Position numbers and translations under genes: made by a program | In this document: positions 2,917-37,899 of the stretch, in pieces | Layout of the letters: every line of letters begins with the position of its first letter | Position numbering within the stretch: position 1 is the first letter of the stretch | The notes under the pieces: model-generated | Database searches by the model: none | The model's input: only the letters and a program-made list of their open reading frames with translations | What the model was told of the DNA's origin: nothing | Source of the DNA: Candidatus Dadabacteria bacterium | Lineage (GTDB): Bacteria > Desulfobacterota_D > UBA1144 > Nemesobacterales > Nemesobacteraceae | Reading direction: 5' to 3' | NCBI GenBank assembly: GCA_026706695.1 | Contig: JAPOYE010000016.1 | Span: forward strand, 6,191-70,190 | Length of the DNA stretch: 64,000 bases

Positions 2917-2928
2917 ACAGTCCTCTCC

Positions 2929-3462: not shown

Positions 3463-3878
3463 CTGTCTCTGCTGGACAGATCATCGTCTGAATTCCCTAT
3501 CCCATCCGGACCGTTAGACCTTATATAGTACAATCCGTCCTCGGTCTGGTCGGTCCCGAAATACACAAACTCGTTCCCCCAAGGATCAAGCGGAACGCTC
3601 GCGGATTCAAGATAACGTCTCCACCTCTTGGCCTCCCTGCCCACCGTTACCGGTTCGACCAGAACGCGTAGCCCCTGCTGGGTTTCAGGATAAAAACCGT
3701 TATCAAACTTAAACAGCTGGAGCGCCTGCTCAAACTGCTTGATCTGAATCATGGCCTGTTTTTCCTTTGCCCTCTCCCCCTGACCTATCACGTTCGTTCC
3801 CACTATGTAGGCAAGCCCCGCTATGATAAGCACGACCACCATAATTTCAATCAGAGTAAACCCCATCTGGGATCTCAT
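3459..3878 (-). CDS. gspG: Type II secretion major pseudopilin GspG
   Basis: GFTLIEIMVVVLIIAGLA N-terminus and the conserved C-terminal DPWGNEFVY...GPDG motif, 139 aa. Confidence 0.9.
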   Translation of the reverse strand: MRSQMGFTLIEIMVVVLIIAGLAYIVGTNVIGQGERAKEKQAMIQIKQFEQALQLFKFDNGFYPETQQGLRVLVEPVTVGREAKRWRRYLESASVPLDPWGNEFVYFGTDQTEDGLYYIRSNGPDGIGNSDDDLSSRDR

Positions 3879-3896
3879 TTTTCTCTACCTCCCTGT

Positions 3897-5105: not shown

Positions 5106-5136
5106 TTGAAATACCGATGTTAAAGACAGCCGCGGT

Positions 5137-6819: not shown

Positions 6820-6834
6820 TTTCTAAGAACTTCC

Positions 6835-9330: not shown

Positions 9331-9373
9331 AACCTGTTTAACCTTAAAGAAACTGAATTTTTTCGTATTGGGC

Positions 9374-10327
9374 CTAGTAAACCGTGTAGCGGTTGCTCTT
9401 TCTTTTACCCTGTCTCGTAAAATTAACGGTAAACTCACTCTGGCCCCTCAAGTCGGTAAAAAGCGAAAGAGCGCTCTGCACGTCGTTTAAAGCAACTTCA
9501 TTTATCTGGTGAACTATATCCCCGTTTCTAAGACCCATTTTATAAAACACGCTCCGGCTTTTCACTCCGAAGATCTTGATGCCGTCATCGCGCGGCACAA
9601 TCTTAGCCTCGGTTATTAAACTGCTGGGTTCAGCGAGCAGCTCTTCAAACATCACTCTCTCTATCTGGTACAAGCCCTCGCTGACCTTGCTGACCCCTGA
9701 AGCCGACGACTTTTTTGACCTAACAGACGGTCTGTTCCTTGCTTGAGAACTCGCGGGGCTTTTCGCGAAAACGGATTCAAGCTCGTTTCCGCAGGTAATC
9801 AATTCGGGACCTTCCGCTCTTCGTATAGTCACTTCGCAGTCGTCTATTTTCACTACCTCCACTTTTTCGGATGTCACAAGATCAACCAACTGCCCTTCAG
9901 AATAACCCTTTATTCCGCTATTTTCCATATTCTTTATCACGGCGATGCTCTTGTTGGCTGCAGAATCAGCGCGGCTTTTGAGTATGAAAGTTCCAAGAAG
10001 TTCAAGCTTGAGGGAAGTTTTCGGGGTAATTTCCCCCTCGAAAACTTCCGAGGAATTGCCCGTTCCCATCTGCCCGGCATACCCGCCCGTTCCGAACAGA
10101 TTTGTTCTCAGTATAGAGTCGTAGTGCTCCCTTGAACGATAGGGAATCTTAACCCGTCCGTACTTCTCCTTGTAGATGTGTTCTCCTGTCAGGCCTCCCT
10201 TGTCGGACTCTATCTTGTCGCGCAGGCCGTTGTTGATCGTGGCCGAAACCGAGTACGCAATGGCGACTATCAGCAAGACGTTTACGACCCAGACATACTT
10301 TCTCAAGACAAACAAAACCATAGTCAA
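9374..10327 (-). CDS. gspC: Type II secretion protein GspC-like (N-terminal TM anchor, C-terminal PDZ)
   Basis: N-terminal membrane anchor and a C-terminal PDZ-like segment (GLRNGDIVHQINEVALNDVQSAL). It is the first gene of the gsp operon. Confidence 0.6.
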   Translation of the reverse strand: MTMVLFVLRKYVWVVNVLLIVAIAYSVSATINNGLRDKIESDKGGLTGEHIYKEKYGRVKIPYRSREHYDSILRTNLFGTGGYAGQMGTGNSSEVFEGEITPKTSLKLELLGTFILKSRADSAANKSIAVIKNMENSGIKGYSEGQLVDLVTSEKVEVVKIDDCEVTIRRAEGPELITCGNELESVFAKSPASSQARNRPSVRSKKSSASGVSKVSEGLYQIERVMFEELLAEPSSLITEAKIVPRDDGIKIFGVKSRSVFYKMGLRNGDIVHQINEVALNDVQSALSLFTDLRGQSEFTVNFTRQGKRKSNRYTVY

Positions 10328-10467
10328 TTCCTTAAATTAATCCCATATAATTTAATAGGATGCCTTATTTTTTTCAACATTCCCATCGCCGCGGAGACAT
10401 AGCTCAAGAAAAGCCCGCAATTCTGAATCGATACCCCGCGGCGATTTTTTAAATATCCGTGCAATGT

Positions 10468-11511
10468 TCACTCGCTCCGTTCTGTTTCCCCCGCCGGAGC
10501 GACGACAGGGAAGTTTTCAAGCACGGAACAAAAATACCGCTTTTCAAGATCATATACGTCAAAAGCAAGTTCCGAGGCCCGCTCGAATCCCTCTCCGCAT
10601 GAAACGCTCTCGCTTATCTCCTTGAAAAGCATTCCCATGTCGTACCACTTCTGACCGATGCTGTTCATCTCGTCGGGAAGACCCGCCCCGTAAAAAGGGG
10701 AGAGCACCGGGGAGACCTCTTCCAGGAAATCCCTGTAAAACCACCTGAAAGCGGCGCCGCAGACCCCTCTTCTGCATATGACCTGGTAAGTAAACCTCGC
10801 GGTCCACTTCCAGTCGGCAAGGTCTCTCCAGCCGGGAAGATCCTCGGCCCACTTCCTTATAACCTCAACGCCTGAAGTTCCTCTCAGTGTGGTTCGGCCT
10901 TCAAGCATCATCTCGGCGTTTTTCCTTACGGCACCGAGAATCATCTCCTCAAGGTCGGCGCCACGTTCCATGGACTCCACTTCAACCCTGTTGTTTGAAA
11001 GAGGATACGGCCTGGCTTTTGAGCTTCTCGCTTTTGTCATATTCTCAAAAGAGACAGTCTGGAGCCCTTCAAACGAGTTGTCCGCTACGTAAAAGACGGA
11101 TTCGGAATCATCGTATCCGCATACCGCAATTACGTGTCCGGGGAAATGGGTCCTGGAGTCAAAATACTCAAGGTAGCGTATATCGGCCTGTATCAGTACC
11201 GGAATGTCTCTCTGAATAAATTCCTTGAGTTCAGCAGAGGCCCGTTCGTTGTCATCCTCATACTTCCAGTCGGCTATGTCAAGGCCGAAGTTCCTGAGGA
11301 AGTTAATCTCCATAAGAGGACCGCGAGGCTGTATAATCCTGCCCGGGTTCATCCCGTCCTCACAGGAGTAATAAAAACCGAGCCCCGCTCCAAGCCCGAA
11401 ACACATCTGCTCGGAAAAATCCTGTCCGTAGTAGATACAGATATCCCTGAGTGCCGCGGAACCGCAGTGCACTCCCTTTAAGTGTCTCCAGCCCTCTATT
11501 GTCTTTCTCAT
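10468..11511 (-). CDS. BtrH-N / C39-like papain-fold domain protein (DUF4872-type)
   Basis: N-terminal GVHCGSAALRD cysteine motif typical of the BtrH_N/peptidase C39-like fold, ~350 aa, no signal peptide. Confidence 0.45.
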   Translation of the reverse strand: MRKTIEGWRHLKGVHCGSAALRDICIYYGQDFSEQMCFGLGAGLGFYYSCEDGMNPGRIIQPRGPLMEINFLRNFGLDIADWKYEDDNERASAELKEFIQRDIPVLIQADIRYLEYFDSRTHFPGHVIAVCGYDDSESVFYVADNSFEGLQTVSFENMTKARSSKARPYPLSNNRVEVESMERGADLEEMILGAVRKNAEMMLEGRTTLRGTSGVEVIRKWAEDLPGWRDLADWKWTARFTYQVICRRGVCGAAFRWFYRDFLEEVSPVLSPFYGAGLPDEMNSIGQKWYDMGMLFKEISESVSCGEGFERASELAFDVYDLEKRYFCSVLENFPVVAPAGETERSE

Positions 11512-11644
11512 AAAATCGTAAGCGCAGGAAGTCTTATGCCTCTTTTACCAGCTACAGCATGTCCATCGGTAGCAGCAAAATGTGAAGACGGATATCGGCA
11601 ATGCTTACAATTTTAGCTGTTTCCGTTCCTTAACTGAAATTTTA

Positions 11645-11670
11645 TGTTCCATAAATGAAGTTATGGAACG
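11645..11670. repeat. Hairpin element, copy 1 (stem GTTCCATAA, loop ATGAAG)
   Basis: ATGTTCCATAAATGAAGTTATGGAAC is read directly from the sequence. Its reverse complement occurs at 13114-13143. Confidence 0.8.
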
Positions 11671-11883
11671 GAATCAAGAAAAGTTTTTCTGGCATATATG
11701 AGGGATTTTGAAAATCAGAAGTTAATCGAATTAAGGAGGGCGGTTCGATTCCAAATGTTTTCATTGGAGTAAGACTTAGCATCTTTGAGCAGGTTTCCGT
11801 ATCCCTCTTTAATTCATTAACGAAATTAGCGTGAAAGTGTTTTTAAGAGTTCAAAAGGAAATTTATTTAAGGAGGATTTACAC

Positions 11884-12876
11884 ATGAGATTACGTAATCT
11901 TTTTATGATTCTATTGTTATGCATGACAGTAGGAGTTTTTGGTGTGTCCTGCACCGGTGATGATGGAGCTCAGGGGCCACAGGGTGAGCAAGGGGAAAAG
12001 GGTGATCCCGGTGAAGTAACGGAAGGTGACCTACCGGAAGCGGTAGAAACCTATAGTTTTCTTGAAAGCTGGGGAGTTGCTGAGGGAGTTTCTTGCAGTA
12101 GCGATATACTGAGCACCGAAGCAGACCTCCCCGGACCTGATTTGGCAGATATTAGTGCTACCGGTCAGGGTAATCTTAGTAGGACCAATGACATAAATAA
12201 TGGTGTTAGTGCTACGTGTGCTGACAGTATTTTCGGCAATATTGTAGCTATGCAGAAAGGTGGAATCAACTTAGATGATCCTGCTCCAGCAGGTAATCAA
12301 ATTTATCTTTATAAAACCAGCCGGACAGAAAAATCTATAGTAGAGAAGGTGCCAACGGAGAAAACCGCTTTCTCTCTTGATATTCTAACCACCACCACAA
12401 AAGATATTGTCGGGGGTAAGGTTTATGCGAAGTTGGAAACTACTGGAGGGGATGAGGCCATTGAGCGTCAGCTTCTTCACTCCCAATGCACCAAAGGAAC
12501 GGATCCTCCGGATATTGTAGGAGATTTCCGGGCCGTCAAGATAGTAACGGCAGCACAAGAGTTTGTTAACAGTATGCCATGTACTGCCGGTACTAACTGT
12601 ACACCCGCGACAAAGACAACTACTAAATACAAGGTCTGTGTGAGGCTTGATGCTCATCCCGGTCAAGTTAAATGTCTTGTAGTGGATAAGGGTGTAACTC
12701 CTGATCCTACACCATCTGACGATAAAACCTTTATAGGTCTTTATGACGGTATGGATGTAAGTGATCAAGAAGTCGACATCACTGCCACTGTAAGTTCTGG
12801 TAATTTCTTTGGTGACACTGCTGCTGAAGTCGCAGGAGCCTATGCAGGTCTTTGTCATCTGTTCGGACTTGAATAA
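11884..12876 (+). CDS. Secreted or lipo-protein with a short collagen-like Gly-X-Y tract, Thr-rich
   Basis: Strong RBS AAGGAGGA 8 nt upstream. Signal peptide MRLRNLFMILLLCMTVGVFGVSC, followed by GDDGAQGPQGEQGEKGDPGEV (7 G-X-Y triplets). GC is lower than the flanking DNA. Confidence 0.7.
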   Translation: MRLRNLFMILLLCMTVGVFGVSCTGDDGAQGPQGEQGEKGDPGEVTEGDLPEAVETYSFLESWGVAEGVSCSSDILSTEADLPGPDLADISATGQGNLSRTNDINNGVSATCADSIFGNIVAMQKGGINLDDPAPAGNQIYLYKTSRTEKSIVEKVPTEKTAFSLDILTTTTKDIVGGKVYAKLETTGGDEAIERQLLHSQCTKGTDPPDIVGDFRAVKIVTAAQEFVNSMPCTAGTNCTPATKTTTKYKVCVRLDAHPGQVKCLVVDKGVTPDPTPSDDKTFIGLYDGMDVSDQEVDITATVSSGNFFGDTAAEVAGAYAGLCHLFGLE

Positions 12877-17887: not shown

Positions 17888-18931
17888 ATGAAAAGGCTCA
17901 AGAACCTGAGAGAAAAACCAAGGAGATTCTTTCTGAGTGCGGGAAAGTACGCCGGCTTCGGGGCCGTGCTGCTGCTGATCGCGTGGTTCCTGCCGCTTTC
18001 TCCATCCTCAGACCAGCAAGCTTCCCGGGATGACCCTGTCTGCGCCGACAACCGTGCGCCCAGACTATCAGGAGCTGGCGCGCTGGCCAAACGCCTTCGG
18101 AATACAAACCTTCTAAACGGTAACGAGATATACGACCGGCTAAGTCTCGAGAGCGGCGACACAGAAACCGGACAAGCCGATGCTTCACCCTCAAGAGGCG
18201 CTGGCGGCTTTGTGACGTCCAGTCCGTTCGATCCCCGGTACCGTGAATCCTACTCCGACATTGCGGAACTGCGCTACTCCCTGCCCGCAAACGCGAGGAG
18301 CTACGAGCTCGACGAGACCAAGGCGACGTTTCTGTTCTACGGTCAGGAGCCAGTGCTGCGGTGGCACTCGTCACTGGGCTCGAATACCGAGGTGTGTGCC
18401 GTCCGGTTCGTGGACACAGACCGCACAGACTACCGGCTGCGCACGTTTCCCGACCAGAAAAGCGCGCTTGCGGAAGGCCATGTCGTCACACACCGCTACC
18501 ACTGCGGAACATGCTCCTCCCTGCGGGATCTCGCGGTCTACCTGGCGAAACCGGATCTGACGAAACCGGCGAGAACATGCGGGAGGAAGCTTACGGCAGA
18601 CGGCATCAAGAAGTGTTTCATGGAAAAAGTCGGCTTTGCGGAAATGTGCGCAGAGACCTGGACATACAACGTACTGCACACCAAGCGCCGGTGCATGAAG
18701 ACCTGCGTTGAGCACTACGGGTTCTGGAACGTGCTGACAAACAAGATGAACGACGCGCATGCAGACGAGCGGGGGAACCTGAACCCGTGCCTGGCCTGTG
18801 ACGAGCACGCTTCCGGCCCGGGGTTCCAGTACGCAGCGGGACGAACGCGGAGAAATTCCGGCCTGGTGTCAGCTATCTGCCGGCAGGCAGGGGAAATCTA
18901 CCCGGTCGAGCATCGGCTTTACTTTGAGTAG
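17888..18931 (+). CDS. Hypothetical membrane-anchored Cys-rich protein (GC-rich gene)
   Basis: 347 aa ORF with one N-terminal TM segment and many Cys in the C-terminal half (HCGTCSS, CLACDEH). Many antisense ORFs overlap it because the local GC is high. Confidence 0.4.
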   Translation: MKRLKNLREKPRRFFLSAGKYAGFGAVLLLIAWFLPLSPSSDQQASRDDPVCADNRAPRLSGAGALAKRLRNTNLLNGNEIYDRLSLESGDTETGQADASPSRGAGGFVTSSPFDPRYRESYSDIAELRYSLPANARSYELDETKATFLFYGQEPVLRWHSSLGSNTEVCAVRFVDTDRTDYRLRTFPDQKSALAEGHVVTHRYHCGTCSSLRDLAVYLAKPDLTKPARTCGRKLTADGIKKCFMEKVGFAEMCAETWTYNVLHTKRRCMKTCVEHYGFWNVLTNKMNDAHADERGNLNPCLACDEHASGPGFQYAAGRTRRNSGLVSAICRQAGEIYPVEHRLYFE

Positions 18932-19023: not shown

Positions 19024-21285
19024 TCACATATACCGATAGGTCAGCTGCACGCCGAAGGTCCTGCCCCTGAAAAGCGACGTGAATGAACCTCCCAATTGTT
19101 GAAAGAGAGGATTGTCAAGCGCTTGATAGCTTCCGTGCTTGACCTCGTTAAGAAGGTTCTTTCCATAGAATCCGACTGAAAATCTGTCGCTCATCGGGGT
19201 GATGTCAATTCCGGCGTCAACAATGTTCTGCTCGGGAGTATATCCCATATTGTTATCCGTGAGATATGTTTTGCCACGATATGAATAGCTTATCCTTGAA
19301 GTCATCTTCCCCCAGTCCGCAAGTCCGGCGTCATGGGTAGCGCCGACGCTCCAAGTCAGCTTCGCGGCCCGGGGAAGCTCTAAAGCCAGGTCTTTTTCGT
19401 CAAGAACGCGATCCACATTAAGGTCATATTTTATTTTGGTGTACTCGGGATCCACGTATCCGACTGAACCCAGAAGAAAAAGCCTGTCGGTAACCGCAAC
19501 CAGCCCGTCAAGTTCAAAGCCGAAGGCTTCCACGTCAGCAGTGTTGCGAATCTCCTGTGCGAAAACGCTGGCCGATCTGGGAAGAGTTATTATCCGCTGC
19601 ACATCATCGATCATGTTATAGAAAACCGCGCCGTTGAGAATACCTATGTTTGTCGATATCTTGAATCCCGCCTCGAAGGTATCGATTTTCTCCTCATCGT
19701 ACGGCCCCGGGAGCTCCTGATCTGGGGGGTAACTGTTTCGCAGATTATAGCCTCCTGAACGGAATGCTCTGGTCCAGTGTCCGTAGACACTCGCTTCAAC
19801 TTCCGGTCCGCCACCTATATAGTAGACAGCGCCGAGCTTGGGCGACCAGCTGTTCCAAGTTTCCTCGTCGGTGAAATCAAACTCGCATGCCGGTCCGACC
19901 GCAACGTTGCATGGCACCGGGGTAGCGGAAACGGTCTCCGCCTTTCTCTTTTCATGGCTGTAACGGGTGCCCGAGATAAGCGTTACCCGGTCCGTAAGAT
20001 CGTAATCAAGCGAGAGAAACACGCCCAAAGTATCGACAAAATAATTTCCTCCCAGATTCTGGGTTACAGCTCCTCCCAGTATATAACGGCTGTCATGGTA
20101 GTTTATCTCGTTTGTAAAGTAGTAAAGACCGGTCGTCGCGTGGAGACTTTCAAAGAATCTGCCCGCATAGCGCAGTTCGTTGCTCCACTGGCGGTATGGG
20201 GTCCATCCGCGTATGTGGAGAATGTTTTTCGGGGTAGAGTCGATATCAACCTGAGCGCTACCTTCCGAATCGAAAAAACCGAATATATTGGTCACGGTGC
20301 CGTCTCCGAAATCCACATCCCAGTCAAGCTGAGCGGTGAAGAAGTGATGTTCATGCCTCCTGAAGCCTTCTTCGTCAATGCTGAAATCATGACTGTTAAG
20401 ATCGAAGTCACGCTGGTTCTGCGACGCGGTGCCGTCGTTCCTCGTTTTTTCGTACTGGTAGCGCAGAACAAGGCTCACGTCATCCGTCGGGCTCCACGCA
20501 ATCATCGGTCGTACCATCCGTATGTCGTTCTCTCCGAAAGCCTCGCCCGTGTGGAGGTTCTTGAACCAGCCGTTATCCTGATTCGTGTACGCGCTTACCT
20601 TCACTCTTAATGTCTCGCTGATCGGGCCTCCGACTGTGGTCATGTAATAGCTGTTAAGGCTCTCGCCCCCTCCTTCAAACGAAGCGCGGGCCGATACCTC
20701 AAAAACGTCTCCCGGTTTCTTAGTGTTAATCAGTACGGCTCCCCCCGTGACATTCCGCCCGAAAAGCGTTCCCTGCGGTCCCCTCAGCACCTCTATGCTT
20801 TCAACATCGAAGGTGTCAAACAAAACAATGCTTATCTGCCCCATATACACGCCGTCGACAAACACTCCCACGGTCGGATCAATAGACGCTATGGTGTCGT
20901 TTATTCCCACGCCGCGGATGGAAAAGTTGGCTAGCGACATTCCCGAGATGCCATCGTCAAGGGCCACGTTGGGCATGAGCACCGCGAGACTTTCAAGGTC
21001 GTTTACCTTAAGGGTTTCAATCTGTTCCGAACTGAAATGGGTAATCGACAGGGGGACGTTCTGAATCAGTTCCTCCCGTTTTCGGGCGGTGACCGTGATT
21101 TTTTTGAGAAGTACGCCGCTTACCCCGAACACACTCTGCGCGGCAGTGTCATCGCCCTGTGCGGATGCGTCGCCGCCACCGAGCGACGCCAGGAACAAGC
21201 ATGCGAGAGACATGCATAAAAGCCTCTTCACTGCAGACTGGAATTTTCTTTTAATCATTTCGATGCCCTCCTTTCTGTCAAGCAA
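19024..21285 (-). CDS. TonB-dependent outer-membrane receptor
   Basis: Signal peptide, N-terminal plug region (VTARKREELIQNVPLSITHFS), ~750 aa beta-barrel length. Confidence 0.85.
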   Translation of the reverse strand: MLDRKEGIEMIKRKFQSAVKRLLCMSLACLFLASLGGGDASAQGDDTAAQSVFGVSGVLLKKITVTARKREELIQNVPLSITHFSSEQIETLKVNDLESLAVLMPNVALDDGISGMSLANFSIRGVGINDTIASIDPTVGVFVDGVYMGQISIVLFDTFDVESIEVLRGPQGTLFGRNVTGGAVLINTKKPGDVFEVSARASFEGGGESLNSYYMTTVGGPISETLRVKVSAYTNQDNGWFKNLHTGEAFGENDIRMVRPMIAWSPTDDVSLVLRYQYEKTRNDGTASQNQRDFDLNSHDFSIDEEGFRRHEHHFFTAQLDWDVDFGDGTVTNIFGFFDSEGSAQVDIDSTPKNILHIRGWTPYRQWSNELRYAGRFFESLHATTGLYYFTNEINYHDSRYILGGAVTQNLGGNYFVDTLGVFLSLDYDLTDRVTLISGTRYSHEKRKAETVSATPVPCNVAVGPACEFDFTDEETWNSWSPKLGAVYYIGGGPEVEASVYGHWTRAFRSGGYNLRNSYPPDQELPGPYDEEKIDTFEAGFKISTNIGILNGAVFYNMIDDVQRIITLPRSASVFAQEIRNTADVEAFGFELDGLVAVTDRLFLLGSVGYVDPEYTKIKYDLNVDRVLDEKDLALELPRAAKLTWSVGATHDAGLADWGKMTSRISYSYRGKTYLTDNNMGYTPEQNIVDAGIDITPMSDRFSVGFYGKNLLNEVKHGSYQALDNPLFQQLGGSFTSLFRGRTFGVQLTYRYM

Positions 21286-21404: not shown

Positions 21405-24008
21405 TTAACTTCGGCCTTTTAAGAGACCTTTCCAGAATACTGCCGAAAACAGTACGGAGGCTATGAAAAACAGGCTAAACAAAGTACCTTTGGCAGTACC
21501 ACGAGCCCCGGCAATCGCACACCCGTCGTCACCGCTAACTCCCGGATGAAGACCGGAACCTATTATAAGTTCCTCGCCTCCCAGAAAGTCGGGATGACTA
21601 TAGGTTACAACATAGCTTAACTTGGGTACATCACCAGGGGCTCTGCCTTCTTCGGTCCTTGGGGGTATATCATCCGTCGGATCATCCCACAGGTATTCGA
21701 CAAACCCCCCGGAGTCCTCCGGCAGCAGGCCCAGTTCCTTACATTGCCTGTCCTGGCCATTTGCCACCCTGATTGCCTCATTGCCAACATCGCACTCATT
21801 ATCGTCCCTGACATCAAAACTTCGGTTCTCAAGATGAGGCCCATTCCCGTTAAAGAACACCAGATTCCCCTCGGTCATGATAAACACGTAGATACCCTTG
21901 TGCCTCCAGGGCGATATCCTCCAGCAATTGCGGATCCTGGCTAACTGGGCGGGACTTTGACTGTTTTCTTCCACCTGCTCGGCAAAGTGGTCCCTGAAAT
22001 TCTCCACAAACTCTTTAAGCGTGTCGCTGTCTGCAACCTCATTAGCAGTTCTTCCCTGAGTGATAAAGGGTTTTTCATCAATTGGCTTTGTGAAGAATGG
22101 ACAATTTATCTCATCAAAGCTCACTTCACTATCATCATCCCCTTCATGATCATGATGATAGCCGGCGATAAGGATAAGCTTGGTCTTCCAGATTGGGTGT
22201 TCGAACTTGACGGCACATGCTATCCTTTCCGTACCGCGCTCACCCTCTTCATGCTCATCGCCTTCTTCCGGGCCGTACGGAACACAGCCGCCTGCTTCCA
22301 TTCCTGAAGCTTCAATGAGGCTGGTTACTTCCGGGTGAAGGCCGCCCGTTCGTGCCTCGCCTTCGCCTGAATAATGAACCAGTGTCCCGTTCTGTGCTTC
22401 AGGGTCATCTGCATGAATAAAGATTGTGCCTTCTTCATCTATCACCATCAGATATATGGTGCCGTTCTTCCAGTCCCCTTCCTCTGTTATGCTCTTCTCG
22501 AATTCTATGTTGTCGTTCGGTTCACTGATGGCCTCCCAGTGAGCTTTTGCATGCAGGATGAAATTCTTCATTCCAGGTTCGTCTGCTTCGGTAATGTCAC
22601 CAGCGGTTAAACCGGTTATGTTGCCATGGTCACCATTTCCATGAGCAACTGCGGGCTGTGGAGCGGATAAGAAAACCACCAGCGTTAAAGCAAAGACAAA
22701 CAAGATTGTCACCCTTTTTCTCATGATTGATCCTTTTTTTGTCCGTTTTCCCGGCGGCCGGTTTTTCCACAAAACCGCTGAAAACAGCAAGGAAACTATC
22801 ATCAAGAAGTTGAATACGGTGCCGCGAGACGTATTCCCAGCGCCCGCAATCGCACATCCCCCGTCATCATCTTCAAGGTAAATACCGGAACCGAAGATTA
22901 AATGAATTGTATTTGTCGCAGTAAGCTGCAAAGGCACTTTCTGAACATAGCTCCTCTTGAGTGAAGTGCCGGGAGCACAGGTCTGAGGGCCATCCGGGCA
23001 GTTCTCCAGATCGACATCGTCATCAGGTGTCGTCGGATCATCCCACAGATACTCAACAAAGCCATCGCTATCGGGGTCGTTCACCTCTTCAACAATCAGG
23101 TCTCCCACGTTTACCCCGTTCTCATCCGTGACATTAAGAGTTTTATTTTCAAGTTCCGGGGTATTTCCGTTAAAGCCTACAATTCGATTTTCGGGCATAA
23201 AGAACATATAGATGGAGCCATGTTTCCACGGCAATGCCCTCCAGCAATGTCGGAGTCCGATCACGCGGGCACCGCCAAGTCGCTTTCTCTGCTCTATATA
23301 ATAATCAATAAACTCTTGTACAAACTGCTTCAGAGTCTCTTCGTCCACCACTTCAGCAGCGGTTATCCGGGGAACATAGTAGGGGCATGTCGCCTTGGCA
23401 AAAGATACATCTTCAAAATCGTGATGAAGTCCACCGATCAGGATCTCTGTAAGCTTAAGAGTTTCTTCACGGAAAACCGGATGGAGAAATTCGACAGCAC
23501 AGCTAACCCTTTGACTTCCGTTCAAGACATAGTTCAGACAGCCCCCATCCTCGTTTTCGCCTGCAAGCCTGATGAGTCGTTCCACAACCCGTGTTCCCTC
23601 GTCGTCCTCGAAATCATACAAAGACCCGTTTTCCGCGAGAGGATGGTATGGCTGATGAATCAGCGTACCATCTTTCCGTAACCGGATTACATATGTGGCG
23701 TCGCTTCTCCAATCTCCCCCATCTATCGATGCCCGGTTTTTGAATTCAACAAACGCAGCTATACTTCCCGTGGGAACTTCGTCCAAGTGTGCTTTTATAT
23801 GCAGCACAAAGTCCTTCACGCTGCCTTCATTCGCAGGGTCAACGTCACCGGCGGTTACGCCCATTGTATCGCCGTGGTCACCGTCCCCATGGGCGGTTGC
23901 GGGTTGGGTTGCGGAGAAGAAAAACAGCAAAGCCAGCACACACGCAAGAAGCGCCGCTCCGCTTTCCAGTTTCCTCGCAAAATCTTTCTTCGTCAAGATC
24001 TTCATCAC
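21405..24008 (-). CDS. Exported His/Asp-rich protein: two tandem paralogous units fused in frame
   Basis: Residues ~1-433 and ~438-867 are paralogous. Each has a signal peptide ending A-x-A before HG[D/N]GDHG. Both share FxLHxKAH, CAV[E/K]FxHP, HHD, FVEYLWDDPT and a C-terminal GCAIAGA + hydrophobic helix + basic tail. No stop codon lies between the units. Confidence 0.6.
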   Translation of the reverse strand: MMKILTKKDFARKLESGAALLACVLALLFFFSATQPATAHGDGDHGDTMGVTAGDVDPANEGSVKDFVLHIKAHLDEVPTGSIAAFVEFKNRASIDGGDWRSDATYVIRLRKDGTLIHQPYHPLAENGSLYDFEDDEGTRVVERLIRLAGENEDGGCLNYVLNGSQRVSCAVEFLHPVFREETLKLTEILIGGLHHDFEDVSFAKATCPYYVPRITAAEVVDEETLKQFVQEFIDYYIEQRKRLGGARVIGLRHCWRALPWKHGSIYMFFMPENRIVGFNGNTPELENKTLNVTDENGVNVGDLIVEEVNDPDSDGFVEYLWDDPTTPDDDVDLENCPDGPQTCAPGTSLKRSYVQKVPLQLTATNTIHLIFGSGIYLEDDDGGCAIAGAGNTSRGTVFNFLMIVSLLFSAVLWKNRPPGKRTKKGSIMRKRVTILFVFALTLVVFLSAPQPAVAHGNGDHGNITGLTAGDITEADEPGMKNFILHAKAHWEAISEPNDNIEFEKSITEEGDWKNGTIYLMVIDEEGTIFIHADDPEAQNGTLVHYSGEGEARTGGLHPEVTSLIEASGMEAGGCVPYGPEEGDEHEEGERGTERIACAVKFEHPIWKTKLILIAGYHHDHEGDDDSEVSFDEINCPFFTKPIDEKPFITQGRTANEVADSDTLKEFVENFRDHFAEQVEENSQSPAQLARIRNCWRISPWRHKGIYVFIMTEGNLVFFNGNGPHLENRSFDVRDDNECDVGNEAIRVANGQDRQCKELGLLPEDSGGFVEYLWDDPTDDIPPRTEEGRAPGDVPKLSYVVTYSHPDFLGGEELIIGSGLHPGVSGDDGCAIAGARGTAKGTLFSLFFIASVLFSAVFWKGLLKGRS

Positions 24009-27715: not shown

Positions 27716-27982
27716 TTACTTGCTTTTTGCTTTTAGGGGAAATTTTTCAGGATTCTCTATTATTTCTTCCGTAACGTCAACATCAATATCGGGCCAATAG
27801 AAGTGCCCTGGGGACGGTTCTTCGACATTGATGATCGATTTTATGGACTGATCCCTGAACCAAGGAAAATCATCATAAGACATAAACAACTCTTTTCCGT
27901 GAGCCAGAAGCCATACTCCATGAGTAGAGATATTTGTCACCTCAACTGCCGAAATGCTGCTTCCATGCTGCGATAAGCTCAT
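27716..27982 (-). CDS. DUF2442-family small protein
   Basis: ~88 aa small protein, lower GC, overlapping its DUF4160 partner. Confidence 0.55.
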   Translation of the reverse strand: MSLSQHGSSISAVEVTNISTHGVWLLAHGKELFMSYDDFPWFRDQSIKSIINVEEPSPGHFYWPDIDVDVTEEIIENPEKFPLKAKSK

Positions 27983-28190
27983 CGTAATGAACCTCCACGA
28001 GTAATTCAATCTCCCTGAGTTGGTGTATAGAATAACGATAATTTTTTGCTAACTCAATTTTGGGTTCAAGCCAAAACTTCGCCTCGCCTTCACTTGATAC
28101 TACATGGACGTGCATTCGTTGTTCTTCCCTTGAGAAAAAGAAGAACCGATACCCCTTTTCTCTGAACACCGTAGGACTCATGATCAGCAC
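27942..28190 (-). CDS. DUF4160-family small protein
   Basis: 82 aa. The DUF4160/DUF2442 gene pairing is a recurring arrangement. Confidence 0.55.
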   Translation of the reverse strand: MLIMSPTVFREKGYRFFFFSREEQRMHVHVVSSEGEAKFWLEPKIELAKNYRYSIHQLREIELLVEVHYDELIAAWKQHFGS

Positions 28191-28219: not shown

Positions 28220-30181
28220 CTACATGTTTTGAGTGCCGTTCGCAACTTGCGAATGTTTTTCCCGGTATACGTAATTTCGTGCGAACAAAGAAAAGGCAAG
28301 GAGAAGGAGGACAGCTTGGGGGATCGCGGTCTCATAAGAGGGATATATCCCGAGAGTATCCATGTAAGGAATGAAATCCGCCGTAGTTGAAGAAATAATT
28401 CCCGCCTCCTGGAGTTCAAGTATTCCCTTGCCGAGAAGTATGAAACAGAGCAAGTAGAGGAAAACGCTCGTGAAGGAAAAGAAGTATTTAAGAGGAATCC
28501 TGAGGGTAAACCTGTACATAAGAAAGGCTATTACGAACACGACCGCCACTCCTGCAATAAGTCCATAGATCACGTGCGGCGTGGATGAACCGGTCTGGAA
28601 GAAAAGCGCCTGGTAAAAAAGAATCGTCTCGAAAGCCTCCCTGTAGACGGCAAGAAACGAAACGAAAGCAAGAGTAAGACCGCTTCTGCGGGTAAGCGCG
28701 CCCTGGGTCTTCGAGCGGACGTATTCCTTCCATTTTTTTACGTCCGCCTTTGAGACAAGCCAGTAACTTACGTAAAAAAGAATCGCTGCCGCCAGAAGAG
28801 AAGTCACTCCTTCCACGATCTCCCTCCTGGCCCCCGAGATGTCTATTATAGTTCTTGCCGCAACCCACGTCGCCAGTCCCGCAAAGATGGCGAGCACCCA
28901 CCCGTAGTGAACGTACCTGATCATCCCGCGGTTACCTGAATGCGCCAAAGCGGCGATAATGGCCGCAATGATCAGCAGAGCTTCAAGCGCTTCTCTGAGT
29001 ATTATGGCAAAAGAATTAACAAAACTCAGGTATTTGCCGAGCGATGAGCCGCCTTGCAGAATGCGTTCCGACTCACGAAGATCCTCCTCTATGCTAGCTT
29101 TCAGATCATGAAGCTCGGAGGAGTCCCGGTCGGACATCACTAATGACCTGAAAAATCCCATTTTTTTCTCAACCTCAAGAACAAGCGGTCTTTTTTTCGA
29201 TACCAGGGCAGGTTCGATTCTCTGAAACCCTCCCAGGTACCCGTCGAGAGCCTCCTTGAAAGCCTCGTCCTTTCTACCGGCCTCGTAAAGATCGATGGCC
29301 TCTTCAAGCTTCCCCACGGTATGGGCTATAGCTTCGGATGCATCTCCAGCAATTCCATCCCGAAGATAAGCGGTTCTCAGGTAAAAAAGAACTTCCTCGT
29401 CACTGCCCCCGGCTCCGGCATTAAGAAGAATCTCCGCATTGCTGGCCAGGGCAAGATTTTCAAGCTTTCTTACATCATGGGGAATATTCTCCGTGGAGAA
29501 CCCAGAAGTACCTCCGCCTGAGGGAATATCCGGATACCCGAGCGAGAGAACATAAAACGCCACATCCCATTTCTGTTTTTCGTCAAGCACCTTTTCGAAC
29601 GAGGTCATGGCGGTACCTTCGATCCCGAAAGTGGTGGTGTTGTAAACTTTAAAGGGTGAGAGCCCGAGATTTATATCAGGGGCTGTGAAATCCGTGGGAG
29701 GAGGATTGAGGGTCTTAGAGAAAGCATCGTCCGGCCTTCCTGAGAGCCCATGACAGGAGGAACAGTTCCTTACGTAAAGCTCTTTTCCGCTTTCGTAATC
29801 GGGTATATTCGCCGGATAGGGTTTTATGTCATAGGCTGAAATGATCCGCTCTTTCAGTTCACCTGCAAGGCTTTCCACCTCAGAGACGGGCCCTTTGGAT
29901 ACCACAATTGAGTGCAGACGTGCGAATTTTTCGGAAAAATCAGCTGTTCCTTCTCTCTTCTCACCCGTTTTTTCCCACAGGTCAACCGCTACGGAAGAAA
30001 AGTCCAGCATTTCCTGATACTCAAATTCGTTTATGATCTTCCCTTCTTTTACGGCATTTGCGTAATCTCCTCCTATGTAATCGACAAGAGAGAGGACCCT
30101 GTCTATCTCCGCGGCATAAGAGAGCGCGGGAAAAAGAAAAAATATGAGAACTGGCAAATAGAAGAAACTTTTTTTAAGCAT
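28220..30181 (-). CDS. High-affinity iron permease FTR1/EfeU family fused to an N-terminal periplasmic cytochrome c domain
   Basis: Signal peptide, CSSCHG (CXXCH) heme c site, then a polytopic domain carrying two REXXE motifs (REALEAL and REAFETI) typical of FTR1. Confidence 0.8.
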   Translation of the reverse strand: MLKKSFFYLPVLIFFLFPALSYAAEIDRVLSLVDYIGGDYANAVKEGKIINEFEYQEMLDFSSVAVDLWEKTGEKREGTADFSEKFARLHSIVVSKGPVSEVESLAGELKERIISAYDIKPYPANIPDYESGKELYVRNCSSCHGLSGRPDDAFSKTLNPPPTDFTAPDINLGLSPFKVYNTTTFGIEGTAMTSFEKVLDEKQKWDVAFYVLSLGYPDIPSGGGTSGFSTENIPHDVRKLENLALASNAEILLNAGAGGSDEEVLFYLRTAYLRDGIAGDASEAIAHTVGKLEEAIDLYEAGRKDEAFKEALDGYLGGFQRIEPALVSKKRPLVLEVEKKMGFFRSLVMSDRDSSELHDLKASIEEDLRESERILQGGSSLGKYLSFVNSFAIILREALEALLIIAAIIAALAHSGNRGMIRYVHYGWVLAIFAGLATWVAARTIIDISGARREIVEGVTSLLAAAILFYVSYWLVSKADVKKWKEYVRSKTQGALTRRSGLTLAFVSFLAVYREAFETILFYQALFFQTGSSTPHVIYGLIAGVAVVFVIAFLMYRFTLRIPLKYFFSFTSVFLYLLCFILLGKGILELQEAGIISSTTADFIPYMDTLGIYPSYETAIPQAVLLLLAFSLFARNYVYREKHSQVANGTQNM

Positions 30182-30356
30182 AGTCCGCGGACATCTCCCC
30201 ATCTTGGGGGTCAGGGAAGGTACTTTTTACCATTCTAGACCTTTATTGTCAATAATTCTCATCGTTGTCATTTTCGCCTCTCTAAATGGTTCCGGGAAGA
30301 AAATCAGACGGGTAATTTCGCTGATTTTCTTGTCCGCAAATATTTTTAAAAAATTC

Positions 30357-30385
30357 TTGACATCATAACTCCAGAATGTTATTAA
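30357..30385 (+). promoter_or_regulatory. Sigma70-like promoter, TTGACA-17 nt-TATTAA, upstream of the porin gene
   Basis: Consensus -35 hexamer at 30357-30362, 17-nt spacer, TATTAA at 30380-30385. The RBS AAGGTGGA precedes the ATG at 30460. Confidence 0.5.
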
Positions 30386-30459
30386 TTTACATCATGGATA
30401 TCAAATATCCAGAATATCTATTAATTACGCACCCTAACAAGGTCACAAAAAGGTGGAAA

Positions 30460-31749
30460 ATGCTTTTTGTCTTTTTCCTGATTTTTTCACTCGGAGGCAC
30501 GCAGATTTCTCTAGCGGGTACGGCTTCGGACGAAAAGATAAAAAAGCTTGAGGAGCAGATAAAGGTTCTAGCGGATGAGATAGAAGCCATAAAGTCCGCT
30601 TCGGTAACGGAGCCTACGGTTTATGAGACGGAATTCGGCTTGGCCCCCGCGGCTTCTAAGGTCTACAGGGTTGATCAGGGAATATCGTTCGGAGGATACG
30701 GTGAGGTGCTTATAGGCAACGTAAAAGAGGGGGATGCGAACGATGTAGTGGATACCCTGAGACTGGTTCTCTATAACGGCTACAAGTACAACGACCACAT
30801 AATTTTCAACTCGGAAATAGAATTCGAACACGGTACGACGGGAAGCAACAAGGATGGAAAAGCGGGATCGGCCTCGGTTGAGTTCGCGTACGTCGATTTC
30901 CTTATAAGGGATGAGCTCAACCTTCGGGGTGGGCTTCTGCTGACTCCTTTCGGAGTTGTAAACGAGATTCATGAACCGACAACGTTTTACGGAGTGGGGC
31001 GACCCGAGGTGGAGAGACGGATAATTCCGAGCACCTGGAGAGAGTCTGGTGCCGGGGCGCACGGAACGTTTGATCTGGGCAGCGGCGGAGAGCTTTCTTA
31101 CAGGGCCTACGTGATGTCGAGCGCCGATGCTCGGGGGTTCAAGGCGTCGGATAACAGAAGTCTTCGAATCAAGGGAAACAGGGCAAGATTCGAGGACATG
31201 GCTTTTGTCGGAAGGCTTGAGTACGATCCTATTCCGGGAATCAGAATCGGAGGATCCATGTACTACGGTAACACCGGTCAGGGCGAGGAAGTTAACGGCC
31301 AGACTATAGACGGCCTCTTCCAGATGTACTCGGTTGACGGACAGTTTCAGTATGCAGGGTTAGACCTGAGGGCTCTAGCAGTCTGGACCAGTCTTGATGA
31401 CGCCGCGCTTATAAACCAACTTAAAGAGTATGAAGGCAACAAATCCGTCGGGGAGGAACAGTCCGGCTGGTATGTTCTAGGAGCATATAACATTTTCTCC
31501 GCGCTTAACTCCGGAAGCAAATACATGGAGTACCTAGCGCCTTTTTTCCGATATGAACAATTTGATACCCAGGAGAAAGTTCCCGCCGGATATGGGAGAG
31601 ACCCAGCGAACGACAGAACCCAGTACACTATCGGGATAAATTACAAGCCGATTCCAAACGTGGTCGTAAAGGCAGAGTATCAGAATCTTGATACCGCCGC
31701 GGGTCAGGCAAAGGACCAGTACAACTTCGGGATTGGATATGTGTTTTAG
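30460..31749 (+). CDS. Outer-membrane beta-barrel porin (OprO/P-like) with N-terminal coiled coil
   Basis: Signal peptide MLFVFFLIFSLGGTQISLAG, a coiled-coil heptad segment, alternating amphipathic beta-strand patterns, and a terminal ...GYVF. Confidence 0.6.
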   Translation: MLFVFFLIFSLGGTQISLAGTASDEKIKKLEEQIKVLADEIEAIKSASVTEPTVYETEFGLAPAASKVYRVDQGISFGGYGEVLIGNVKEGDANDVVDTLRLVLYNGYKYNDHIIFNSEIEFEHGTTGSNKDGKAGSASVEFAYVDFLIRDELNLRGGLLLTPFGVVNEIHEPTTFYGVGRPEVERRIIPSTWRESGAGAHGTFDLGSGGELSYRAYVMSSADARGFKASDNRSLRIKGNRARFEDMAFVGRLEYDPIPGIRIGGSMYYGNTGQGEEVNGQTIDGLFQMYSVDGQFQYAGLDLRALAVWTSLDDAALINQLKEYEGNKSVGEEQSGWYVLGAYNIFSALNSGSKYMEYLAPFFRYEQFDTQEKVPAGYGRDPANDRTQYTIGINYKPIPNVVVKAEYQNLDTAAGQAKDQYNFGIGYVF

Positions 31750-35253: not shown

Positions 35254-37899
35254 TTATTCGGGCTTCAGGATTGAAACCGCCGCCGCAGCGGGATTTATGT
35301 ACTTCCTTGCCACCCTCGCCACGTCGTCCGCTGTGACGGAAAGAATTTTCTCCGGGAACCTCCTGTACTCGTACGCGCCTATTCCGTAAAGCTCGTCAAA
35401 CCCGACTATTGACGCCTGAGCGGAGTTTCTCTGAAGCCCTATCTCGAAACTTCCCACAATATAGTTCTTCGCCCTCTCAAGCTCCTCCTCCCCGACACCC
35501 TTCAAGACAAGCTGGAGCTGTTCCTTTATCGCTCCGAGCGCCTCCTCCTGCTTCTGCGGAGCAGTTCCTATATAAACACCGAAATAGCCCCCTTCCATCC
35601 CGGGAACATAGAACGAGGTAACGGCGTAAGCAAGGCTTTTCTTGTCCCGAAGCTCGATGAAGAGTCTTCCTCCCTGACCTGAGAGCACCGAATTCAGCAC
35701 CTCAAACGCGTAGCGGTCCCGGCTTTTAAAACCAGGGGCGTGATAGCCCGCGATAATATGGGTCTGGGCCTTGTCTCTTTCAAGCTCGACGGTTTCCCTC
35801 GCAGAAGAAAGCGCGGACTCACGGGGCGGCCGGGTCTTTTCGAAACCTCCCCGCTTCATGCCGCCGAACAGCTTTTCAAGAACGCCAAGAGTTTTCTCCG
35901 CGTCAATGTCGCCCGCAACGGAGATGACCATGTTCTCGGGTCTTATGACTTTCTCGTAGAACCCGCGTACATCGGCCGAGGTAAACCTGTCTACGTTTTC
36001 CTCGGTTCCAAGAACGTTGAACCTGTAGGGATGCTTAAGGAAAAGGGTCCTCAGAAAGTTCCTGACCGCCTTTCCCGTGAGATTGTCCTCCTGCTTTTCC
36101 AAAGCGGCCAGAATTTCTCTTCTCTCCCTCTCCATTTCCTCATCGGAAAAAGAAGGATCAAGTATCACGTCCGAGAAAATATCCATCGCCCCTTCAAAGC
36201 TCTCACTCAATGCCGAGAGAGTCACCCCGACGCTGTTTTTCCCCGAGAAGCCGTCAACCGTTCCCCCGAGCCCTTCTATCTGGGCGGCTATATCTTCTGC
36301 GGAGCGGTTCGAGGTGCCGCGGGTGAACATCCCGGACATGAAGTTCGAAATCCCGTTCGTGTTCTCGTCCTCATACCTGAGGCCGCCCAGAAACGCCGCG
36401 TGAACGGAGAAAAGCGGAACGGCCGGATTGCGTTTCAGAAGAACCCGGATTTCGTTTGAAAGCTCGTATCTTTTAAATTCCGCCTGCGCCTGAGAAGCCT
36501 TTTTCCTTTCTTTTTTCTGGGCCCCTCCGGGAAAAACAAGGGCCTCTCTGAAGCCCTTCTCAACCCCCTTGGCTTTGTCTTCCGGAAGCAGCGCTCCCGC
36601 GGTGAGATTTTTCTGCACGAGGTATTCTCCGGCTACCCGCAATATGTCCTCCGGGGCAACATTCCTCACCCTCTCAAGGTAGAGGCGTTCGTAGCCGTAA
36701 TCTCCGGTTTCAAGCTCGAAGTAACCAAGCTTTCTCGCCTGTCCCTGCATGGTCTCCTTGGCGCGGATGAAGTCCCTTTCTATGTTAGTCTTGGCGCGGG
36801 CAAGCTCCTCGGCCCCGACGGGTTCGGTCTTTATAAGCTCTATCTCCGCCACTATCTCCTCTGAGGCTTTTTCAACCTTGCCGGGGTCAAGAACTCCGCC
36901 CACGAGGAAAAGGCCGTTCTCCTTGAGGCTGTAAGCGTAGGCGTATATGTCGTTTACGGTGGCGTTCTGCTCCTTCAGTCTTCTGTAAAGCCTGGAGCTC
37001 TCCCCGCTGCCGAGTATGCCGCTTATAACGTCAAGAACCGGAGTGTCGGCGTGGCTCGCCGAGGGAGTATGGAAGGCAAAACTGAAGTAGCCCGTGTTTA
37101 CGTCGCGGCCGATAACGAAGGTTCTCGTGCGTTTCTGCTCGGGCTCCGGGGGAAGTTCGCACCGAGGAGTTTTTCTTTTCTTTATTTTTCCGAAAGTCCG
37201 GGCCACCTCGTCCTTTATTCCCTCGGGATCAAAATCCCCGACCACAACGAGAATCATGTTGTCCGGGGAATACCACTTTCTGTAGAAATCAAGTATCCCG
37301 TCTCTGGTGAAGCTCCCCACGCTCTGCTTGGTTCCTATTATGGGCCTTCCGTAGGGATGAACGCTGTAGGCCGTGGAGAAAAGCTTCTGGCTGAGCACCC
37401 TTGAGGGAGAGTCCTCTCCCCTTCTTATCTCTTCCTGGACAACCTCAAGTTCCCGCTCAAGCTCCCCGGGGTCAAAAGTCGAGTTCTCCATGACGTCCGA
37501 GAGCAGGTCAAGAGCCACGGGCAGGAAGCGCCGCGCGCTTACGATGTAGTAAACCGTCTCGTCAAAGGAAGTAAACGCGTTTATGTCTCCGCCTCCCGCC
37601 TCGACCATCCCGGCTATCTCGCCGACCCGTCTTTTCTCCGTCCCCTTGAAAAGCATGTGTTCGTGCACGTGCGCGAGGCCGTACTCGCCCTCCACCTCGC
37701 ACGCGCTTCCGGTCTTCACCCACACGTTAACGGCGACGACCGGGGAAGAGTCGTTTCTCTCAAGAAGCACGGTCATGCCGTTAGAAAGACTGTACTTGGT
37801 TACTCCACTGACACCCGCAAGGGTCTGCGCACCTGAATTCATAAGACTTGCTCCCGTAATCAGAATGAACAAAAAAAGTAATTTGAAAACCCCTCTCAT
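35254..37899 (-). CDS. Secreted M16-family zinc peptidase (tandem M16 units, PqqL-like)
   Basis: Signal peptide, inverted zincin motif HVHEHMLFKGT (HxxEH), and 881 aa comprising two M16 repeats. Confidence 0.85.
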   Translation of the reverse strand: MRGVFKLLFLFILITGASLMNSGAQTLAGVSGVTKYSLSNGMTVLLERNDSSPVVAVNVWVKTGSACEVEGEYGLAHVHEHMLFKGTEKRRVGEIAGMVEAGGGDINAFTSFDETVYYIVSARRFLPVALDLLSDVMENSTFDPGELERELEVVQEEIRRGEDSPSRVLSQKLFSTAYSVHPYGRPIIGTKQSVGSFTRDGILDFYRKWYSPDNMILVVVGDFDPEGIKDEVARTFGKIKKRKTPRCELPPEPEQKRTRTFVIGRDVNTGYFSFAFHTPSASHADTPVLDVISGILGSGESSRLYRRLKEQNATVNDIYAYAYSLKENGLFLVGGVLDPGKVEKASEEIVAEIELIKTEPVGAEELARAKTNIERDFIRAKETMQGQARKLGYFELETGDYGYERLYLERVRNVAPEDILRVAGEYLVQKNLTAGALLPEDKAKGVEKGFREALVFPGGAQKKERKKASQAQAEFKRYELSNEIRVLLKRNPAVPLFSVHAAFLGGLRYEDENTNGISNFMSGMFTRGTSNRSAEDIAAQIEGLGGTVDGFSGKNSVGVTLSALSESFEGAMDIFSDVILDPSFSDEEMERERREILAALEKQEDNLTGKAVRNFLRTLFLKHPYRFNVLGTEENVDRFTSADVRGFYEKVIRPENMVISVAGDIDAEKTLGVLEKLFGGMKRGGFEKTRPPRESALSSARETVELERDKAQTHIIAGYHAPGFKSRDRYAFEVLNSVLSGQGGRLFIELRDKKSLAYAVTSFYVPGMEGGYFGVYIGTAPQKQEEALGAIKEQLQLVLKGVGEEELERAKNYIVGSFEIGLQRNSAQASIVGFDELYGIGAYEYRRFPEKILSVTADDVARVARKYINPAAAAVSILKPE

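Follow-up and report, generated by a model that had tools for sequence, protein, structure and literature searches.

Background

Nearly all that is known of Cache domains concerns their role as input modules in signalling proteins. In the standard topology of such sensors, the Cache domain lies between two transmembrane (TM) helices, and signalling runs through a continuous helix. Here we describe a gene whose product appears to use Cache domains as anchored or displayed binding modules with no output domain. It is a minus-strand open reading frame (ORF) at positions 21405–24008 of a 64,000-nucleotide stretch of contig JAPOYE010000016.1 from a Candidatus Dadabacteria bacterium (assembly GCA_026706695.1; the whole stretch is called the window below). 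The reading that we favour, with roughly even confidence, is that the chain is cleaved into a tandem of anchored extracytoplasmic modules, each with a metal site built on an N-terminal histidine.

Three other kinds of described systems resemble parts of this protein. A 2025 study (PMC12537917) reported, from structure and spectroscopy, Cu(II) or Ni(II) binding by a conserved histidine at position +1 after the signal peptide in four unrelated new families; membrane tethering occurs in some of these, and Cache domains are not mentioned. In the related histidine brace of copper proteins such as LPMO, CopC, PmoB (CuB site), and X325, Cu is held according to PMC10952591 in a T shape by the amino group and π-N of His1 together with the τ-N of a second His. 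C-terminal sorting signals of the Cys type, as described by Haft, have no spacer, are cut by CPBP/Rce1-like myxosortases, and go with export via a type II secretion system (T2SS). Low-copy systems of this type exist, for example JDVT-CTERM (Haft), and MrtX has been confirmed by experiment and was co-expressed with TraA in E. coli (PMC11980579). Finally, viral glycoprotein polyproteins are well known to contain a stop-transfer helix and, after it, an internal signal peptide at which signal peptidase cuts (PMC5113920).

Results and discussion

The ORF listing gives a product of 867 aa from a GTG start, and translation probably begins instead at the ATG at 24005, since a 100%-identical database protein (P0001) has 866 aa. 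A BLASTP comparison of residues 1–428 with residues 429–867 found 38% identity from end to end (E=4e-87), far beyond chance. This bears out the two paralogous units of ~430 aa claimed by the initial annotation, which are arranged as tandem modules in a single reading frame. Both halves also show all of the landmarks quoted there: the junctions PATA↓HGDGDHGD (H40) and PAVA↓HGNGDHGN (H456; the arrow marks the predicted cleavage site), the pairs FVLHIKAH and FILHAKAH, CAVEFLHP and CAVKFEHP, and GLHHDFE and GYHHDHE (module 1 first in each), two copies of FVEYLWDDPT, and GCAIAGAG and GCAIAGAR, with a hydrophobic helix and then a basic stretch after each. Hydropathy identifies four hydrophobic segments, which start near residues 13, 395, 427, and 839; the second and third are separated only by K415–R432, which contains G-S-I-M. 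The order within each module is the same, with a signal-peptide-like segment ending in A↓H at the front, and a disordered acidic linker, G-C-A-[IV]-A, a TM helix, and a basic stretch at the back. Two complete exported units in one gene are an unusual layout for bacteria, which also rarely join paralogous modules through a TM helix, a basic loop, and an internal signal peptide.

Either a genuine two-module protein or a lost stop codon or sequencing error had been considered before. The junction DNA (ACAAAAAAAGGATCAATCATGAG) has features that would suit two adjacent paralogous genes joined artificially through a lost stop codon or a homopolymer error: it contains an A7 run, and in its ATGA a TGA stop in the +1 frame shares letters with the ATG. 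When 5.8 billion proteins were searched, however, ~50 full-length two-module homologues of 830–890 aa were recovered at 44–91% identity, two of which carry the name Candidatus Dadabacteria. Their junction sequences are very diverse and mostly lack a Met at the start of module 2, yet these independently assembled homologues all keep one ORF. The identical 866-aa protein was also found on two other contigs, and P0192, which is 27% identical, has the same junction anatomy, namely a GC motif, a helix, a basic loop, and a signal-like helix ending in AEA↓H. Because ~50 independently assembled homologues keep the single ORF, the idea of a lost stop or sequencing error is refuted, and we consider such an artefact almost inconceivable. 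The comparison of homologues thus indicates that the single-chain tandem of two paralogous modules is genuine and conserved. When modules were compared between proteins, 96 of 98 were closest to the same module type, which indicates a single ancient duplication with retention of both copies.

The fold of the modules was overlooked in the initial annotation. Pfam dCache_2 (PF08269) matches the product in four stretches with 67.6 bits (gathering threshold (GA) 26.5; E=1.3e-18), and sCache_2 (PF17200) matches with 50.4 bits (GA 25; E=3.1e-13), while the whole protein had no relevant match in NCBIfam. An AlphaFold2 (AF2) model of mature module 2, made from a 39-sequence module-level alignment, reached a predicted local distance difference test score (pLDDT) of 83.5 and a predicted template-modelling score (pTM) of 0.80. 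It has two PAS-like lobes with helices before each, a disordered stretch at residues 370–390 that includes the GC motif, and then the TM helix. The closest solved folds are all Cache/PAS chemoreceptor or kinase sensor domains (for example Adeh_3718 4K08, V. parahaemolyticus methyl-accepting chemotaxis protein (MCP) 2QHK/4EXO, and PscD 5G4Y). By profile match and model, each module is a pair of Cache (sCache_2) domains. The module 1 ectodomain (aa 40–377; 22878–23891, minus strand as are all parts of the ORF) is predicted from Pfam and from the full-length AF2 model to be a flexible His arm followed by two sCache_2-like lobes, and the module 2 ectodomain (aa 456–821; 21546–22643) has the same plan.

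The motif FVEYLWDDPT, singled out earlier as a special landmark, loses that status. Together with its partners K..SYV and GSG, it is equally conserved in family members that have no His site, and the set forms what we take to be the generic sCache_2 core signature. Lobe 2 retains the Y-x-W-x-x-P / K-x-S-Y-V / G-S-G core and is predicted to be a canonical sCache_2 small-ligand pocket. This core and the hydrophobic helices on both sides are shared with known sCache_2/dCache_2 sensors. The differences from those sensors are a doubling at two levels (two sCache lobes in each module, two modules in each chain), leaders that resemble signal peptides with an invariant A↓H rather than a TM1 helix, a lobe 1 rich in His and Cys, disorder in the linker that leads to the C-terminal helix, and no output domain. 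The predicted cytoplasmic parts amount only to an 18-aa basic loop and an 8-aa tail, and Pfam found no kinase, MCP, GGDEF, or other output domain in the product or in eight long relatives.

These relatives come from an exhaustive hidden Markov model search with the module profile, which collected 670 representative proteins. Most have a single module (400–470 aa), share the leader, and bear the same tail as their actual C-terminus. Among the long relatives, P0189 combines an autotransporter beta-domain with seven sCache_2 stretches, P0320 carries a Por_Secre_tail of the type IX secretion system (T9SS; its NCBI name is T9SS type A sorting domain protein, from a Bacteroidetes metagenome-assembled genome (MAG)), and others have FlgD-Ig, PKD, or fibronectin type III (fn3) repeats. 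The Cys tail therefore takes the position in which other lineages put recognised export or anchoring devices (autotransporter, T9SS). Because long relatives carry export or sorting domains and none of the eight has a signalling output, the domain content indicates that the protein is a displayed or anchored binding unit and not a signalling receptor. We found no paper pairing 'Dadabacteria' with 'Cache domain' and no earlier description of the family in the literature.

Two smaller kinds of relatives were also observed. A 256-aa single-Cache 'mini' relative (locus L022, 15328–16098, minus strand) keeps all hallmarks (SFA↓HDGDH, FVMHAKAH, GDW, YTWDDP, GSG, and DDGCAIAG followed by a helix and basic tail) and would be a convenient minimal construct for biochemistry. 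A second small family (L014 18509–19552; L015 16867–17883; L025 17301–18464) has lobe 2 and a GGGCAIA tail in common, but its N-terminal part differs and position +1 is not His (VHA↓TH... or VHA↓TT...). Its genes lie a few kb from two-module paralogues.

Both leaders end in an invariant A↓H junction. Segment 1 (aa 1–39; 23892–24008) is a predicted Sec signal peptide with a basic n-region, a hydrophobic core, and a c-region ending in TQPATA, and segment 3 (aa 433–455; 22644–22712) is an internal signal-peptide-like helix ending in SAPQPAVA. At both junctions, position −1 is Ala and +1 is His in 51/51 sequences. At the internal junction −3 is Ala in 50/51, with Pro or Gly at −4 to −7 in 44/51; at the first junction −3 is Ala or Leu, and Pro or Gly occurs at −4 to −7 in 42/51. 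Such features look like those of signal peptidase I substrates, and fit them better than plain TM helices. His is thus predicted from the invariant junction to be residue 1 of both mature modules (HGDGDH... and HGNGDH...), with codons at 23889–23891 (His40) and 22641–22643 (His456, read directly in the DNA).

This histidine varies together with other residues across the wider family. Among 243 aligned modules, the helix-1 motif HxxxH accompanies an [AGSC]↓H junction in 162/181, while modules with a leader but no His junction have it in 2/33, both of which are scoring errors. Among representatives at 50% identity, HxxxH was present in 66 of the 79 with the junction and in none of the 30 without it (Fisher p=6e-17, a statistic that ignores phylogeny). 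Specificity for the His-junction group is highest in the columns H70/H486, H74/H490, H45/H461 (the second arm His), H196/H619, and C157-C170/C575-C598, all of which are within lobe 1. The HxxxH residues are invariant putative metal ligands in helix 1 of lobe 1 and correspond to H70-x3-H74 (LHIKAH; 23787–23801) in module 1 and H486-x3-H490 (LHAKAH; 22539–22553) in module 2. Together with His1, the lobe-1 His/Cys columns define a coherent putative site that appears to have come and gone as one. The best reading is a putative metal site involving the free mature N-terminus, which has good support from conservation and co-variation and draws on the analogy with known N-terminal-His proteins.

The initial annotation had compared the predicted N-terminal His with copper 'histidine-brace' proteins such as CopC, LPMO, and PmoB. 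The metal idea itself gains from the invariant +1 His and its co-variation with other His residues, but the fold is not that of CopC, LPMO, or PmoB: no Pfam or NCBIfam match to these or related brace families was found, and the structural neighbours are all Cache/PAS. Compared with N-terminal-His and histidine-brace proteins (CopC, LPMO, PmoB, YcnI), the fold here is Cache rather than beta-sandwich or cupredoxin-like. Proteins identified through 'signal-strapping' (DUF4198, DUF6702, and the Ang-1/Ang-2 anglerases; PMC12537917) likewise have a His after the predicted cleavage site plus further conserved His residues. The anglerases are also extracytoplasmic and membrane-tethered, although their tether is a permease fusion whereas here it would be the protein's own C-terminal helix. 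A co-varying multi-His site at the mature N-terminus makes these modules a candidate new fold class of N-terminal-His metalloproteins.

Several observations weigh against a cleaved protein with an N-terminal-His metal site. Besides the neglect of phylogeny in the co-variation statistic, position −3 of the first site is Leu in 31/51 homologues, a residue that signal peptidase I accepts though it is less canonical. AF2 does not place His1–5 (pLDDT<50). In addition, no metal transporter, regulator, or chaperone is conserved beside the gene in the related loci examined.

The same architecture could also mean that the chain stays uncleaved in the inner membrane, anchored by four helices, as a single-chain pseudo-dimer of a Cache sensor without its former output domain. 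In that case segments 1 and 3 would be plain TM1 helices, helices 2 and 4 would be plain TM2 helices, and a periplasmic ligand or metal would be sensed and relayed through membrane contacts to a separate partner (a kinase, transporter, or secretion component). Helix–Cache–helix is the usual sensor topology, the closest solved folds all come from chemoreceptor or kinase sensors, two modules with four helices reproduce a dimeric sensor layout in one chain, and AF2 places the modules together (pTM 0.76). However, the invariant −1 Ala and +1 His, the small −3 residue, and the helix breakers at both junctions would be needless in plain TM helices. The link from Cache to helix is a disordered acidic/Gly linker (pLDDT 30–45) where a sensor signals through a continuous helix, relatives swap the tail for autotransporter or T9SS export domains, which speaks for display and not transduction, and no conserved partner gene was found in related loci. 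We therefore regard an uncleaved sensor remnant as unlikely.

Returning to the cleaved tandem, the distribution of charge fits a topology with the N-terminus in, module 1 out, the loop in, module 2 out, and the C-terminus in. Among homologues, the median net charge is +7 for the inter-helix linker and +3 for the C-terminal tail, and the N-terminal region is basic. Segment 1 would open Sec translocation of module 1, which would be stopped by TM helix 2 (aa 398–414; 22767–22817), a predicted stop-transfer anchor from hydropathy that coincides with an AF2 helix at 395–415. The K/R-rich loop K415–R432 (KNRPPGKRTKKGSIMRKR; 22713–22766) is predicted to stay in the cytoplasm, segment 3 would restart translocation for module 2, and TM helix 4 (aa 843–859; 21432–21482, from hydropathy and AF2), followed by the basic tail KGLLKGRS (21408–21431), would stop it again. 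Both start segments resemble cleavable signal peptides with A↓H at the end, and cuts by signal peptidase I would therefore be expected at A39↓H40 and A455↓H456. Two polypeptides would be released, both anchored by the C-terminal region and both starting with a free His. The arrangement of stop-transfer helix and internal signal peptide recurs in the cytochrome b/c1 precursor FbcH of Bradyrhizobium. Viral polyproteins such as bunyavirus Gn/Gc also share the stop-transfer helix, the cytoplasmic basic loop, and the signal-peptide-like helix with an AxA site (PMC5113920), whereas here the two products would be paralogues of each other, with a leader and an anchor apiece, and the cleavage is predicted.

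The full-length AF2 model had a pTM of 0.76 although ~180 residues have pLDDT<50. As each globular module is less than 40% of the chain, this value indicates a confident inter-module arrangement, and the model implies that the modules pack as a pseudo-heterodimer. In each module, His1, the second arm His, the helix-1 HxxxH, and the His at the end of lobe 1 may together form a transition-metal site, as suggested by the co-variation and by the N-terminal-His Cu/Ni proteins. Our guess is that the role is most likely the envelope-tethered capture or holding of a metal ion or metal–ligand complex.

The tail that would anchor each module has a constant order of an acidic run, the GC motif, 9–12 polar or charged residues (for example AGNTSRGT and ARGTAKGT), a hydrophobic helix of ~17 residues, and K/R residues. 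G-C is invariant in both tails of 47–51 homologues, with the consensus C-A-[IV]-A. The motif is G384-C385-A-I-A-G389 in tail 1 (22842–22859, read directly in the DNA) and G829-C830-A-I-A-G834 in tail 2 (21507–21524). The linker around the Cys is acidic and Gly-rich, with pLDDT<50 in the AF2 models. At minimum, G-C-A-[IV]-A with its helix and basic tail is predicted to be a flexible membrane anchor.

A sorting signal of the exosortase/rhombosortase type had been suggested for these tails. The tripartite resemblance holds, and the nearest model, matched weakly, is the Cys-type MYXO-CTERM, but the suggested class does not hold: the tails have no PEP or GlyGly signature and no match to those sorting models, and among the polytopic ORFs of the window there is no exosortase or rhomboid but a CPBP/Rce1-like protease. 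In NCBIfam, 13 of 42 homologue tails match MYXO-CTERM TIGR03901 weakly (best E=0.0024), three match JDVT-CTERM, and one matches Synerg-CTERM, while the ORF's own two tails match no sorting-signal model at E<=10. Short sorting-signal models are known to need lineage-specific rebuilding (Haft). Like MYXO-CTERM signals, the tails combine an invariant Cys motif, a TM helix, and a basic cluster, and C-A-[IV]-A fits Cys-aliphatic-aliphatic-X literally. Unlike them, they have the spacer between Cys and helix, they belong to a lineage outside Myxococcota and Bradymonadales, and they were seen only on Cache-containing proteins. Tail 2 and the tails of all single-module relatives are C-terminal, whereas tail 1 is internal, ~450 residues from the end. 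Because the spacer, the lineage, and the internal copy depart from the definition, we do not file the tail as a MYXO-CTERM member; as a sorting signal of the Cys/CPBP class it is plausible and partly supported by these likenesses.

Within ~0.8 Mb of window and related loci, the tail was seen only on proteins with a Cache lobe. A tail-profile search of the 5.8 billion proteins returned four tiny fragments and missed known positives, and so is uninformative on non-Cache clients. P0286, P0298, and P0314 have 2–7 fn3 repeats, one Cache lobe, and a GGGC-helix-RR tail, and therefore the tail also ends larger multidomain proteins. P0286 and P0334 (of the P0298 cluster) are on ~2-Mb contigs, one of which also carries the single-module member P0337.

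A candidate processing enzyme for the Cys tails lies at 63336–64000 (plus strand), where a CPBP/Rce1-like intramembrane protease (PF02517, E=1.5e-19) is cut by the window end; its true start is probably 60–75 nt downstream. Its homologues have 201 aa and are 77–96% identical across genomes carrying Cache paralogues, far more conserved than the Cache paralogues of the same genomes (45–80%). The top NCBIfam models are MrtP, Mrt_core, and MrtS, with 68–74 bits on Mrt_core NF040914 against a cut-off of 100. The genome thus resembles MYXO-CTERM systems in having a conserved CPBP protease with Mrt-type best models and a full T2SS, while the score below cut-off sets the protease apart. The T2SS cluster (804–10327, minus strand) is complete, with GspK, two pseudopilin-like genes, GspF, GspE, the GspD secretin, and a GspC-like PDZ protein; GspE and GspF pass equivalog cut-offs. 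From its gene content, this cluster is a possible surface-export route for the modules.

These parts can be joined in a larger scheme, which we offer tentatively and think improbable as a whole. The product would be a tandem pre-protein, two complete secretory precursors in one chain, with signal peptidase cutting both A↓H sites. The G-C-A-[IV]-A tails would be new, spacer-containing Cys-type sorting signals, one of them internal; the tail Cys would be lipid-modified and the tail cut by the 201-aa myxosortase-like CPBP protease. The T2SS would then move the lipid-anchored modules to the surface, where a 1:1 Cache heterodimer would capture a transition metal via His1. If true, it would give the first N-terminal-His metalloprotein with a Cache fold as well as the first known case of a sorting signal that acts internally. 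The junction also offers a natural system for studies of internal signal-peptidase cleavage and possibly of internal Cys-tag recognition.

Two other long ORFs of the window were considered as paralogues and rejected. The 867-aa ORF at 6835–9438 has no match in related loci and is the GspD secretin, its equal length being a coincidence, and the 881-aa ORF at 35254–37899 likewise has no match in related loci. A BtrH_N/DUF4872 (peptidase C39-like) gene at 10468–11511 adjoins the T2SS cluster.

Genomic context

A TonB-dependent receptor at 19024–21285 does lie directly downstream on the same strand, as the initial annotation said, with a gap of 119 nt and both Plug and barrel domains (PF07715, PF00593). 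The functional link drawn from this adjacency is another matter. A substrate-capture component of TonB uptake (hemophore, SusD, or TbpB-like), co-transcribed with the receptor, would be compatible with the shared strand, the short gap, and the finding of no terminator-like site between the genes (the promoter and terminator scan gave counts no better than those of shuffled sequence). It would also agree with iron/metal transport genes elsewhere in the window (28220–30202 and 47621–50268) and with the N-terminal-His DUF4198 nickel proteins that neighbour TonB receptors (PMC12537917). However, no homologue of the receptor or of any other window neighbour was found within ±10 kb of 34 related loci (BLASTP E<=1e-5), four Pfam-annotated contexts of related loci had no TonB receptor, and the receptor itself matches generic TonB models only, all below equivalog cut-offs.

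Orthologues at 80–82% identity stand instead among housekeeping genes, between an HDAC-family gene and Rpe, with FolC also there, and one orthologous subgroup lies between transketolase/PGI and RpiA. When the ORFs of 27 loci were clustered all-vs-all, the sole synteny to emerge was of housekeeping genes (transketolase, PGI, RpiA, sulfite reductase, helicase) and was confined to one orthologous subgroup, while other paralogues are among housekeeping and insertion sequence (IS) genes. As the receptor is absent from all related loci examined, the 80–82% orthologues included, its adjacency is not a family property and looks incidental. As a family-level property, the TonB-uptake reading is largely refuted by this gene-order comparison, and overall we consider it very unlikely; co-transcription of this copy with the receptor is possible, because no terminator was found in the gap.

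A scan of one genome per species found two-module homologues almost exclusively in Dadabacteria MAGs (NCBI label Thermodesulfobacteriota), often with at least three paralogues per genome. Locus L003 has three two-module paralogues in tandem (4480–12610). Shortened, recombined, or interrupted copies were observed at L010 (9947–13881), L018, L020, L024, L026, and L027, with ~1.3 kb between two fragments at L010, and IS/transposase genes frequently flank paralogues (L035, L036, L038, L039). The tandem, broken, and IS-flanked copies together suggest rapid family turnover. That uncultured Dadabacteria with genomes of ~2 Mb still carry at least three fast-diverging copies suggests an important envelope function.

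Several other genes of the window were recorded. The gene at 28220–30202 (minus strand) encodes a 660-aa protein in which a cytochrome c domain is fused to an FTR1/EfeU-type iron permease, and divergent from it at 30376–31749 (plus strand) is a 457-aa ORF with a faint beta-barrel-porin (BBP2) match. A FecB/FecCD/FecE-like ABC importer occupies 47621–50268 (plus strand); the best NCBIfam model for its binding protein is a PGF-CTERM-anchored ABC transporter substrate-binding protein, well below cut-off. Convergent with the TonB receptor, a 347-aa Cys-rich ORF at 17888–18931 (plus strand) matched nothing in Pfam or NCBIfam. Two small ORFs of 97 and 82 aa that overlap each other (27716–28190, minus strand) separate trigger factor from the FTR1 gene and look like a toxin–antitoxin-type pair.

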